A DNA stretch of 64,000 nt from Patescibacteria group bacterium (GTDB lineage: Bacteria > Patescibacteriota > CPR2 > UBA1875): positions 96,001 through 160,000 of the forward strand of contig JBGSRK010000010.1 of assembly GCA_041737595.1 (NCBI GenBank), read 5' to 3'. Below are positions 363 through 17,776 of the stretch, one piece after another (within the stretch, counting starts at the first letter, position 1; each line of letters opens with the position of its first letter). The position numbers were made by a program, and so were the translations under genes. The notes beneath the pieces are model-generated. The model was not told where the DNA came from and ran no database searches. It saw only the letters and a program-made list of their open reading frames with translations.

Positions 363-933
363 ACTAAGAAGTTTTAATATAATTATTTCTGTATTGTTTT
401 CATTAATGATAATATCTATTTTCGGTTTATTTATTATTGGATATATTTTAATTTCTGATAATAGATCTACTTTAGCTGAAAATGAATATAGAATAAGTAA
501 AGTAGATGAAGCAGAAGATAATCTTTCTTCACTTGAAAAAAGATATAATTTGATTAAAAATGATTTGATTAAAATAAATACAGCCCTCCCAGATCAAAAA
601 GATAGCTCATTAATAGTATCTGACCTAGATTCACTCGCAAATAGCTCTGGATTAAAACTAGTGTTAATTAAATCTGCTATCACGGGTAAAAAAAGTTCAA
701 GTTCTGATTTAAGTCTATTACAAACAATTAAGGGTAAATATGGATATGAGATCCCAATAGAAATAAAAGTAGATGGAAGCTTTGGTAGTCTTTCAGATTT
801 TATTTCTAAAATTGAATCATCTCAAAGATTATTGAATATTACTTATATTGATATTTCTAAGGTTAGTAGGACAGGAGACATGAGTGATAGTATAGAAGCA
901 AAAATTAAATTAACGGCTTATTTAAAAAAATGA
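355..933 (+). CDS. pilO: PilO-like type IV pilus assembly protein
   Basis: N-terminal TM, coiled coil, 'ALPDQKD', 'I.V.GSF..L..FI.KIE...RLLNI..I.I' PilO signature. Confidence 0.8.
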   Translation: MNRLRSFNIIISVLFSLMIISIFGLFIIGYILISDNRSTLAENEYRISKVDEAEDNLSSLEKRYNLIKNDLIKINTALPDQKDSSLIVSDLDSLANSSGLKLVLIKSAITGKKSSSSDLSLLQTIKGKYGYEIPIEIKVDGSFGSLSDFISKIESSQRLLNITYIDISKVSRTGDMSDSIEAKIKLTAYLKK

Positions 934-1244
934 AAACAAATAAAACCCAAAATTATAAAATAACAAATCTTAAAGAACTTGGGATTAAACTTTCCAACCA
1001 AAAAACTATGTGGCAAAATGGATTATTTTATGCCGTTATAATCTCTTTGGTTATATTTATATGTGCTATGAGCTATATTTTCTTTAGGCCACTTAGCTCT
1101 GATATGAAACAAATAATTAATGAAGAAATAAATTCATCTAATGTAACCTTTAATGAAAAGGTGATAGAAGATTTAAGTAAAAAACAACAACCAATTAAAT
1201 CATCTGAGACCACAGTCGGTAAAAACCCTTTTTTACCTTTTTAG
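930..1244 (+). CDS. Single-TM hypothetical protein in the PilP position
   Basis: ATGA overlap with pilO; one TM helix; C-terminal 'GKNPF' motif. Confidence 0.55.
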   Translation: MKTNKTQNYKITNLKELGIKLSNQKTMWQNGLFYAVIISLVIFICAMSYIFFRPLSSDMKQIINEEINSSNVTFNEKVIEDLSKKQQPIKSSETTVGKNPFLPF

Positions 1245-1843
1245 TCGCTCTTTGCTATTTTTTTACCCCTAGTTCTTCTTTCATTTTCTTCAAGTTCTTT
1301 AAGCTCCATTATTTTTCTTTGAAGACCGTCGGGATCATTTATATTATTAAAAATAAAATTTCTTAACTCTCCAGCTGTTTGAATTTCAAGATTCCCATAA
1401 TCTAGAGTTGTTTGGATAATTCCATGTTGCCCAAATGTAACATCTTCTACTTGGTCGAGATCAAGCACAGAAACTTTTCTTGAAAATAATCCAATTTGCT
1501 CAACCTCAACAATATGTTCATCTGTTAAAATCACGACATTATAGTATCTTAAAACCCATGAAGTATAAGGGTAGGTTATAAAAAATAAAATAGAGATAGA
1601 TAAAATTATCTCAGGTAATAGATAAATAAAAGAGTCAGAGCCAGTTTTTTTTAATAAAATAAATAAAATGGTTGAGATAATAGAAAAGAAACCTCCGATA
1701 ATAAATGGTGTCAAAAGATAAAACCAATGTTTTCTTGTTATAATTAAAACATTTTCATCATCTTCTTGAGATTCAAAATATTTAAATTTTTTAAAAGCTG
1801 TTCCCACCTTAACTCCAATCCATCCCAGCAAAATAATAAACAA
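1241..1843 (-). CDS. Membrane protein with bacterial PH (bPH_2-like) domain
   Basis: 'RKHW', two TM helices, 'LTDEHIV...GLFSR...L..V.DV.......I....DYGNL.IQTAG' pattern. Confidence 0.75.
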   Translation of the reverse strand: MFIILLGWIGVKVGTAFKKFKYFESQEDDENVLIITRKHWFYLLTPFIIGGFFSIISTILFILLKKTGSDSFIYLLPEIILSISILFFITYPYTSWVLRYYNVVILTDEHIVEVEQIGLFSRKVSVLDLDQVEDVTFGQHGIIQTTLDYGNLEIQTAGELRNFIFNNINDPDGLQRKIMELKELEENERRTRGKKIAKSD

Positions 1844-16772: not shown

Positions 16773-16889
16773 CTTAGTAGTTCAAACCAGCTACTCTGGT
16801 TTTATTTCAATGCCCTAGATACACTACGGACACCTTTGGTGCTCAACTTGGCTCCCGGGGTCGGATTCGAACCGACGACCAATTGATTA

Positions 16890-17390
16890 CACTTATCCTA
16901 CTATTACTAATAGGCGTGGACTATCTCATCACCATACCTTTCGGGTTAGGTGTTGGGCGCTAAATGGTGTACTCACCTAGTCTCTGAACCTTTCCGATAT
17001 GCCGGACTTGGCTGCGGATTATCCCTTTTAGGACTTCCCGCAATTCACCCAATTTTCATTCATTCATTTCTGAATGAAGCTGCGAATGGATTTCTCTGTG
17101 GCAATTTGCACAAACTAGTATGCACTTTTCAATTTCTTTTTTCACCTTTTCCCAAGATCTTGTATTACCTGTTTCAGAAATACCAAAATTTTTATCTTGT
17201 TTATGGTGAAACTCAAGTGCTTCAATACATTTTTTATAACCACATATACTACAACAACCGCCCATATAATCAACTGCTTTCTTTCTAACCATTCTTCGGT
17301 GTTTTGAAACTGCTTTGATTATATATTCTCGACGATCTGAGTAAGTTCTTTTTTCGCTCATGTATTAATTATAACATAAGCGTTGTGATC
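16890..17390 (-). ncRNA. Group I self-splicing intron (501 nt) at anticodon position 35/36
   Basis: Exon ends in U, intron ends in G; IGS GCAG (17083-17080) pairs with exon CUGU; P AAUUGCGGGAA, Q AAUCCGCAGC, R GUUCAGAGACUA, S GAGAUAGUCC; P2 with GAAA loop; P3 UUGGGUG/CGCCCAA; P9 hairpin. Confidence 0.93.
17056..17361 (-). CDS. Intron-encoded HNH endonuclease (putative homing endonuclease)
   Basis: 'CSICGY', 'LEFHH', 'CANCHREIH'; lies between the 5' splice site and the IGS; C-terminus overlaps IGS and P2. Confidence 0.88.
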   Translation of the reverse strand: MSEKRTYSDRREYIIKAVSKHRRMVRKKAVDYMGGCCSICGYKKCIEALEFHHKQDKNFGISETGNTRSWEKVKKEIEKCILVCANCHREIHSQLHSEMNE

Positions 17391-17414
17391 ACAGTCAACT
17401 GCTCTACCGCTGAG

Positions 17415-17666
17415 CTACCCGGGATTATTTAATTGTGTTTTGAGGAATTCTCTTCCTCGGTACGACTTGAGTTGTTTTTCTCGAGCCATTGCAGCCGATC
17501 TACTTGCCGATTCTTCATTGTAGAATAGCTCCCATTGCCCGACAATTTTACCCGTATAATGGATGTTTTTATTATTATGTTCTAGAATTATTCTAGCTAA
17601 ATTATTAGTTTGACCAATATATATCTTATCTGATAATTTATTGTATAAAGCATAAACATAATACAT
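17415..17666 (-). CDS. Small GIY-YIG nuclease family protein
   Basis: 'YYVYAL', 'IYIGQTNNL', 'EHN', 'A..REKQLKS'; stop codon lies inside the tRNA 5' end. Confidence 0.88.
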   Translation of the reverse strand: MYYVYALYNKLSDKIYIGQTNNLARIILEHNNKNIHYTGKIVGQWELFYNEESASRSAAMAREKQLKSYRGREFLKTQLNNPG

Positions 17667-17747: not shown

Positions 17748-17776
17748 ATTATAACAAAAAATTGTCATATTTTCAA
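17748..17776 (-). promoter_or_regulatory. Sigma70-type promoter for the tRNA-Asn locus
   Basis: TTGAAA-N17-TATAAT with extended TG, upstream of the pseudo-exon. Confidence 0.6.

Follow-up and report, generated by a model that had tools for sequence, protein, structure and literature searches.

We identified a tRNA-Asn(GUU) gene which is split between anticodon positions 35 and 36 by a group I intron with an HNH endonuclease open reading frame (ORF) in the loop of its first helix, P1. The gene lies on the minus strand of a stretch of 64,000 nucleotides (nt), referred to here as the window, which comprises positions 96,001 to 160,000 of contig JBGSRK010000010.1 of a Patescibacteria group bacterium (assembly GCA_041737595.1). 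As judged from comparative sequence evidence, the intron is real and well supported. An earlier note, made on the letters of this DNA alone, had placed a split tRNA-Asn(GUU) at 16849-17424, with exons ending in ...GACUGU and starting with UAAUC. The coordinates proved exact, and the 35/36 insertion is borne out by a terminal intron G (omega-G) in 88 of 88 family members and by a guide G opposite U35. Removal of the insert restores a cloverleaf with anticodon GUU, and the window exons joined by script are called as a tRNA-Asn(gtt) of 75 nt by ARAGORN.

Relatives of the split gene fix the insertion site

The split-gene family consists of 88 members: the window genome together with 60 related genomes contributed 14 of them, and the other 74 came from a scan in which each species was represented by one genome. 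Members were collected by the same tRNA body, the exons being required only to read YTGT...TAA. The related-genome sample (61 genomes, window genome included) was screened for both intron-less and split tRNA-Asn genes. The one-genome-per-species scan was made by HNH alignment and gave at least 246 relatives among 600 candidates, the best 80 loci of which were examined. The internal guide sequence (IGS), which forms the 3' strand of P1, could be placed in 87 of the 88 members, and in all 87 of these exon 1 ends in CTGT. Intron-less tRNA-Asn genes of 41 of the 61 related genomes read CTGTTAA, and a 37-mer of such a gene in relative G057 equals the window exon junction letter for letter (compared by eye, no alignment). 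In coded run X3, a DNA contig from another organism has 16889 directly next to 17391 and omits exactly the 501 nt of the intron, which is an allele comparison and not proof of splicing; the other DNA contigs compared with the window are intron-less tRNA-Asn genes of other organisms.

The split gene was absent from the output of default ARAGORN and of the Rfam tRNA model, as expected in the earlier note for standard tRNA finders. ARAGORN with the intron option detects the gene but labels it tRNA-Thr(tgt), i(33,501), a label it also gives to 7 of the 13 tRNA-Asn loci of relatives. According to this reading, which lies beyond the earlier note, the gene is a tRNA-Thr(UGU) with an intron between positions 33 and 34 (CU/UGUAA), and the junction in the spliced RNA would be CUUGUAAU, against CUGUUAAU for tRNA-Asn. 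The Thr parse of the window has a U at position -1 and an intron end ...AUAAG. Both parses thus satisfy the U(-1)/omega-G rule, so that the window alone cannot decide between them; the relatives can. Parsed at 33/34, only 54 of the 88 family introns end in G, versus all 88 when parsed at 35/36, and the conserved guide GCAGC sets its G opposite U35, not U33. In addition, the window exons match the intron-less tRNA-Asn genes of relatives (CTGTTAA, by eye), and the X3 contig joins exactly at 35/36. The window genome already holds a tRNA-Thr(tgt), yet no other tRNA-Asn was found in it, and we also count the tRNA body (U1-A72, G73), which we take to be of the Asn type, against tRNA-Thr(UGU). The tRNA-Thr(UGU) reading is therefore ruled out by the family omega-G counts, the guide register and the intron-less alleles, and we regard it as hardly credible; the gene is a tRNA-Asn(GUU) split between anticodon positions 35 and 36. 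Further intron calls made by ARAGORN elsewhere in the window genome were rejected, as they were unsupported by any Rfam group I match.

The ribozyme core is complete and its helices covary

The earlier note had described a complete group I core, and this was confirmed by a match to the whole RF00028 model of Rfam (model positions 1-253; 17129..16897, minus strand) with a score of 94.8 bits (gathering score 50) and an E-value of 3.8e-23. For pair counts, 14 family members were aligned from the guide sequence to the end of the tRNA (alignment A1) and the structure was written from the window sequence. In this alignment 87.9% of the cells at paired positions were paired and compensatory changes were found in 35 of 54 pairs, values reached by none of 500 shuffles. 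When the 3' partners were slid by 1-3 columns, 32-50% of the cells were paired, a comparison biased in favour of the structure because it was taken from one of the aligned sequences; the compensatory changes are independent of that bias. In a larger MAFFT alignment of 85 cores, 61 columns are conserved to 90% or more, and the window has the consensus nucleotide at every one of them.

The extra hairpin between P7 and the 3' strand of P3 (16977..16966), noticed before from the sequence, covaries in relatives: GGUG/CACC is replaced by GAUG/CAUC, and changes on both sides occur at 3 of 4 pairs. Three relatives (loci L006, L011 and L019) have a longer hairpin and L013 has none, and in L020, L022 and L024 it is reduced or missing. 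The window sequence has a GAAA loop on P2, a GUAA loop on P9 and a receptor-like CCUAAC/GUAUGG motif in P8. We take this layout (GAAA loop on P2, GNRA loop on P9, P8 motif) to resemble the tetraloop-receptor contacts of Azoarcus-type IC3 introns. The extra hairpin after P7 presumably falls outside the IC3 plan, as we understand the criteria of this subgroup. The coordinates of all features are listed in Table 1.

Table 1. Position of the split tRNA-Asn gene, its parts, and related loci (window positions unless a locus is named).
Feature	Position	Strand	Remarks
Whole split tRNA gene	17424..16849	minus	precursor of 576 nt
tRNA-Asn exon 1 (tRNA positions 1-35)	17391..17424	minus	ends ...GACUGU; joined with exon 2 gives tRNA-Asn
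Group I intron, 501 nt	16890..17390	minus	5' G at 17390 (GAUC...), omega-G at 16890 (...AAGUG)
tRNA-Asn exon 2 (positions 36-76)	16849..16889	minus	starts UAAUC; CCA encoded
Extended -10-like element TGTTATAAT	17368..17376	minus	6 nt upstream of the HNH ATG; candidate internal promoter
HNH endonuclease ORF, 101 aa (306 nt), in the P1 loop (L1)	17056..17361	minus	3' end overlaps IGS and P2
IGS GCAGCU (3' strand of P1)	17078..17083	minus	307 nt into the intron
P2 hairpin UCAUUCA-GAAA-UGAAUGA	17060..17077	minus	compensatory changes in 7/7 pairs, 98% of cells paired
Ribozyme core P3-P9	16897..17052	minus	Rfam alignment and pair counts
P3	17052..17046 / 16959..16953	minus	
P4-P5	17042..17013	minus	
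P6	17012..16988	minus	
P7	16982..16978 / 16923..16919	minus	invariant in 14/14
Extra hairpin GGUG-AGUA-CACC, between P7 and P3'	16966..16977	minus	insert in the Rfam alignment
P8	16951..16931	minus	
P9	16914..16897	minus	compensatory changes in 6/7 pairs
Free-standing HNH gene beside tRNA-Asn with ORF-less intron	L088:1201-1858; L094:1159-1782; L043:726-1494; L037:629-1515; L108:784-1500		
HNH gene upstream of uninterrupted tRNA-Asn	L054:1192-1588; L106:1180-1589		
Klebsiella phage Muenster (L191)	768-1461		HNH gene after tRNA-Asn
Bacillus phage Bastille (L192)	856-1684		HNH gene between two tRNA-Asn genes

The guide sequence is part of the HNH reading frame

The earlier note had put the IGS about 300 nt from the 5' splice site, and it was located at 17083..17078, 307 nt into the intron. 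Of 87 family members, 86 have the conserved guide GCAGC, and the pairs G.U35, C-G34, A-U33 and G-C32 form in every one of these 86. In the window these four pairs are followed by a C x A31 mismatch and a U.G30 pair. The guide lies at positions 294-359 of the intron in 77 members and, in nine members without an ORF, at positions 8-28. Since the guide stands only 8-28 nt from the splice site in the ORF-less relatives, the extra ~300 nt represent an insertion into the P1 loop. The claim that the last HNH codons double as IGS and P2 also stands: the guide sequence is part of the codons for Ser-Gln-Leu, and the ORF reads on through the whole of P2 to a stop codon at 17058..17056. Wherever the guide could be placed in an ORF-bearing intron (76 cases), the stop codon lies 10-231 nt past the first base of the guide, which makes the overlap of ORF and guide a family trait.

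Several observations on P1 speak against a working intron. The window P1 has only four contiguous pairs before the C x A31 mismatch, and this mismatch is common to 26 of 86 family members. P1 is supported by conservation and not by covariation, because exon positions 32-35 are invariant (CTGT in 87 of 87) and never vary. Furthermore, a conserved pairing of the nucleotides 5' of the IGS with the 3' exon (P10) was not seen in an inspection by eye only.

The split gene is the sole tRNA-Asn found in its genome

No other tRNA-Asn was found by ARAGORN among the 44 tRNA genes of the window genome (96.9% complete), which holds one group I intron according to Rfam. Among the 61 sampled genomes the intron-less tRNA-Asn pattern was present in 41 and the split gene in 14; only G046 has both, in tandem. 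In the other 13 of the 14 intron-bearing genomes, the completeness of which is 87-100%, the intron-less tRNA-Asn pattern was not found. That an essential tRNA is interrupted in 13 genomes in which no spare copy was found argues strongly for splicing in vivo.

The window assembly consists of 143 contigs with 3.5% contamination, so that a second, unassembled tRNA-Asn is conceivable, which counts against this argument. The intron might then be a dead insertion and the split gene a pseudogene, the working tRNA-Asn being located in the unassembled part. Besides the fragmentation and the 96.9% completeness of the assembly, the readiness with which metagenome-assembled genomes lose tRNA genes and the weak P1 of the window, with its mismatch after four pairs, would fit this explanation. 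However, the intron-less pattern is missing from 13 of 14 intron-bearing genomes and present in 41 of the 61 sampled, and repeated loss by assembly in 13 of 14 genomes is unlikely. Nor does a dead insertion agree with a ribozyme core that equals the family consensus at all 61 conserved columns, with helices maintained through compensatory changes, or with an intact HNH ORF in which all invariant residues are present. We consider a dead insertion very improbable, and prefer the reading of a functional split gene that is spliced in vivo.

An HNH protein encoded in the P1 loop and its candidate promoter

The proposal that an HNH ORF fills the P1 loop (17361..17056) was corroborated by a match of the predicted protein to the PHROG HNH endonuclease family phrog_2255 (E 1.8e-26). 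In an alignment of 40 homologues, residues C37, C40, H52, C84, N86, C87 and H88 are invariant, and the conservation of H53 and H92 is 90% or higher; the window protein has every invariant residue of this CxxC...HH...CxNCH pattern. In an AlphaFold2 model (pLDDT 82.6), a long helix at the N-terminus precedes strands and helices on which the motif residues are located, and this modelled region can be read as the usual HNH active-site fold. Of 410 scored candidates from a collection of 5.8 billion proteins, 406 are relatives at E <= 0.001, and the names on those relatives, where there are any, are 'hypothetical', 'HNH' and 'McrA'. The protein is single-copy in the window genome. Other searches detract from the assignment as an HNH endonuclease: with 20.7 bits the protein narrowly misses the 21.4-bit cut-off of the Pfam HNH domain (PF01844), NCBIfam has no family for the protein, and a fold search of the PDB with Foldseek gave no match at E <= 0.001. 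The best Foldseek matches are HNH nucleases (Cap5, T4 endonuclease VII and the HNH domain of Cas9), at E-values of only 0.11 or worse.

The extended -10-like element directly upstream of the HNH gene (Table 1) recurs in the family. TGnTAnnnT ending 6-10 nt before the start codon was found in 30 of 77 ORF-bearing introns, compared with a mean of 1.4 and a maximum of 5 in 200 shuffles. This suggests that the HNH gene has an internal extended -10 promoter and would be read from a leaderless mRNA. Two findings lessen the case for this promoter, namely that the element occurs in just 30 of 77 family members and that a promoter scan which demands a -35 box did not report it. Members with GC-richer hosts, outside the AT-rich lineages, show, by eye, Shine-Dalgarno-like (AGGAG-like) sequences instead.

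The HNH family accompanies tRNA-Asn in bacteria and phages

Of the best 80 loci of the one-genome-per-species scan, 69 have the HNH gene within a split tRNA-Asn. In five loci the gene is free-standing beside a tRNA-Asn with an ORF-less 35/36 intron, and in two it is directly upstream of an uninterrupted tRNA-Asn (Table 1). Four loci end at contig ends, two of which retain the guide/P2/P3 segment after the ORF. The free-standing loci, which like the occurrence outside Patescibacteria described below go beyond the earlier note, may represent intermediate stages through which the endonuclease gene invaded the intron.

Taxon names of the loci are the record titles of the submitters, and bins can contain foreign contigs. 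By these titles, 40 of the best 80 loci belong to Patescibacteria or Saccharibacteria, and a further 33 go under different names, including Nitrospira and its kin (8), Acidobacteriota (6) and Omnitrophota (5). The element thus occurs well outside Patescibacteria and is not peculiar to the window organism. A quick tree of 76 HNH proteins shows the rows of Nitrospirota, Acidobacteriota and Omnitrophota as clustered (2 changes each) and those of Saccharimonadota as scattered, with 8 changes for 12 rows. The HNH protein of L005, from the order of the window organism, is identical to that of L031, titled Candidatus Saccharibacteria, which sets the window organism close to this group.

Four rows titled Simkania, Bdellovibrionales and Heliobacteriaceae (L080, L035, L036 and L059) sit on very short branches inside Patescibacteria or Acidobacteriota HNH clades, the 'Simkania' row and two 'Bdellovibrionales' rows within Patescibacteria clades. 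These placements reflect either recent transfer or misbinned contigs.

Relatives of the HNH protein are also common in viral sequences. In IMG/VR, 517 of 597 candidates are HNH relatives, and the best 80 loci (L111-L190) were analysed; tRNA genes are present in 75 of these loci and tRNA-Asn in 58. Among the 56 loci less than 90% alike, the tRNA nearest to the viral HNH gene is tRNA-Asn in 26 and another tRNA in 25, with none in five, and tRNA-Asn accounts for 66 of the 516 tRNA calls tallied across the 80 loci. A hidden Markov model built from the IGS-P2-P3 segment found the intron guide/P2/P3 segment in none of the 80 viral loci. Intron calls by ARAGORN in these loci were discarded as spurious, since they span neighbouring tRNA genes. 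In addition, 350 GenBank phage records match the HNH family, and in Klebsiella phage Muenster and Bacillus phage Bastille the gene adjoins tRNA-Asn (Table 1). The tie of the HNH family to the tRNA-Asn gene, with or without an intron, fits an endonuclease that recognises this gene.

Other tRNA introns were seen in the same material. Locus L020 (1447-1721, minus strand of the locus), from relative G048, has an ORF-less intron of the same family in tRNA-Tyr(GUA), at 35/36 (CUGU/AAA) and with guide GCAGCU. A split-tRNA call adjoining the L020 copy (1164-1424, Arg gcg) could not be parsed cleanly by the U(-1)/omega-G rule. In other relatives from this phylum, group I introns interrupt a CAU tRNA at 33/34 (L010, L012, L018 and L029) and tRNA-Phe(GAA) (L004, L015 and L017), and 27 of the 61 sampled genomes gave one or more Rfam group I matches at E <= 0.001.

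A proposed model for splicing and homing of the intron

In the model that we propose, the 576-nt precursor would fold such that C32-U35 of exon 1 pair with the guide GCAGCU 307 nt downstream to form P1, in which the U35.G wobble would mark the 5' splice site. The P3-P9 core would bind guanosine and direct cleavage at the 5' splice site, after which the terminal G at 16890 would dock and ligation of the exons would give CUGU/UAAU and a mature anticodon loop. The 101-aa HNH gene would occupy the P1 loop, its last codons doubling as guide sequence and P2, and would probably be transcribed from its own extended -10 promoter into a leaderless mRNA. Because the same nucleotides serve as HNH codons and as guide and P2, translation and splicing would exclude each other on one RNA molecule. 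The HNH protein would most likely cut or nick intron-less tRNA-Asn genes, whereupon the intron is copied in (homing). What was observed is the anatomy of the element, its conservation and covariation, the precise site of insertion, and the status of the split gene as the sole tRNA-Asn found; catalysis, promoter use and endonuclease specificity we infer from sequence. As a whole we hold this five-step explanation to be highly probable.

A homing role for the HNH protein is suggested by the patchy presence of the intron (41 genomes with an intron-less and 14 with a split gene among the 61) together with the association of the protein with tRNA-Asn. The intron could also splice while the HNH protein no longer homes in this lineage, being inactive or domesticated (for instance to assist splicing, or as a different nuclease); the intron would then be inherited vertically. 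Vertical descent would agree with the HNH tree of 76 proteins, in which the window protein groups with relatives of the same order and family, at a support of only 80-82. Decay or domestication would agree with the ORF-less and frameshifted copies in the family (an ORF of at least 85 aa is missing from 11 of the 88 introns), with the absence of one zinc-binding Cys from homologue L002, and with the best PDB match by sequence, a weak one (E 4e-4) to the endonuclease domain of a maturase from a group II intron (next McrA, 0.015). Against this, the window protein keeps all columns that are invariant among the 40 homologues, and the intron is distributed patchily even among close relatives, as three of the four other genomes of the window's own family have the intron-less tRNA-Asn pattern and one (G003) the split gene. 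Adjacency of the HNH family to tRNA-Asn in phages as well as bacteria is also what would be expected of an active site-specific endonuclease. We therefore judge a loss of homing unlikely, and favour the reading of the HNH protein as a putative homing endonuclease.

More tentatively, the loci may be arranged as a series in which an HNH lineage dedicated to tRNA-Asn passes from a free-standing state to a position beside an ORF-less intron and then to a nested position in the P1 loop, with phages as possible carriers between phyla. The free-standing state covers phage tRNA arrays as well as sites immediately upstream of an intron-less tRNA-Asn in bacteria. CUGU, the sequence read by the guide GCAG, is common to tRNA-Asn and tRNA-Tyr and is also present in tRNA-Asp and partly in tRNA-His, so that the same intron may hop between these tRNA genes, as the tRNA-Tyr copy in L020 suggests. 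We regard this series, phage carriage and hopping included, as conceivable but somewhat short of an even chance.

Relation to known introns and endonuclease genes

The classical bacterial tRNA intron types are Leu.3Ug, Arg.5Ug, fMet.2Ug and Ile2.5Ug, all of subgroup IC3 (Williams, 2020; bioRxiv 10.1101/2020.01.27.920355). Their sites are 34/35 in Leu(UAA), 33/34 in fMet, and 36/37 in both Ile2(CAU) (Azoarcus) and Arg(CCU) (Williams, 2020). The earlier note's statement that these four types use other positions of the anticodon loop agrees with the text of that study. Like them, the window element is a compact group I ribozyme that interrupts the anticodon loop, has U(-1).G in P1 and ends in an omega-G. 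Unlike them, it resides in tRNA-Asn(GUU), at 35/36 inside the anticodon and at none of the four classical sites, its P1 loop carries a 306-nt ORF that puts the guide 307 nt from the splice site, and part of its family has the extra hairpin after P7.

Williams (2020) used the same approach as employed here, namely Rfam together with the intron option of ARAGORN, scored on U(-1) and omega-G. That study added 17 further types from 2017-era genomes to reach 21, many of them in metagenomic assemblies of unnamed phyla. The caution in the earlier note that the site may not be new was fair. Named by the scheme of Williams (2020), the window element would be 'Asn.4Ug', and its commonness makes it likely that Asn.4Ug is already among the types of that study. 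The running text of Williams (2020), as distinct from its type table and figures, describes no HNH ORF, L1 location, dual coding or free-standing relatives. Likewise, no text on a group I intron in tRNA-Asn, an HNH gene in L1, dual coding of guide and P2 or free-standing relatives was found in the literature searched, which covered the running text of Williams (2020) and not its table, figures and supplements, where the type may be listed. In the portions consulted, Lui et al. (2021; PMC8172020) mention that some tRNAs of the Candidate Phyla Radiation (CPR) have group I introns and nothing further, the tRNAscan-SE 2.0 paper (PMC8450103) treats the fMet and Ile2 cases, and Hausner (2014; PMC3984707) names no Asn case.

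The window intron differs from the cyanobacterial tRNA-fMet intron that encodes I-Ssp6803I in tRNA and site, and in an ORF that overlaps guide and P2. I-Ssp6803I is of the PD-(D/E)XK type, versus HNH in the window. The two are alike in being ORF-bearing, presumably mobile and located in an anticodon loop (see also Bonocora and Shub, 2001); the Synechocystis intron is reported to have an ORF of 150 codons.

The free-standing relatives of the window's HNH gene beside target tRNA genes are reminiscent of SegB in the tRNA gene cluster of T4; SegB is a GIY-YIG protein, unlike the window endonuclease, the gene of which lies inside the intron. The term 'collaborative homing' refers to an intron that lacks an ORF and is combined with an endonuclease gene beside it. 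The five loci with an HNH gene next to a tRNA-Asn with an ORF-less intron (L037, L043, L088, L094 and L108) are like this arrangement.

Neighbouring genes and other tRNA calls

Directly upstream of the split gene, window positions 17415-17666 (minus strand) encode an 83-aa GIY-YIG protein (Pfam E 7.8e-14), the gene of which ends 10 nt inside the 5' end of tRNA-Asn. A GIY-YIG gene also precedes tRNA-Asn in L014, L016 and L058. Further upstream, a strong promoter-like site (TTGAAA-17-TATAAT with TG; 17776..17748, minus strand) may drive both the GIY-YIG gene and tRNA-Asn. Elsewhere in the window genome (G000), ARAGORN called a tRNA-SeC(tca) on a small contig (C30:989-1087), and other small contigs (C19, C72 and C118) carry duplicate tRNA-His and tRNA-Thr(cgt) genes. 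These calls may reflect the 3.5% contamination of the assembly.

Implications

In 13 of the 61 sampled genomes the split gene is the sole tRNA-Asn found, and such carrier genomes seem to lack tRNA-Asn or to gain a false tRNA-Thr, which affects completeness checks and the inference of genetic codes in bacteria with small genomes. The six to eight codons that double as protein code and as guide sequence and P2 are a compact case of dual RNA/protein coding. An essential tRNA would here rely on a P1 helix closed over a 300-nt coding loop, with a conflict between translation and splicing. The HNH protein is a candidate endonuclease with a short and highly conserved target. If the proposed series is true, the family would be a well-populated record of a free-standing endonuclease gene invading a ribozyme to give a mobile intron, and would offer many natural intermediates for testing the endonuclease-invasion model.

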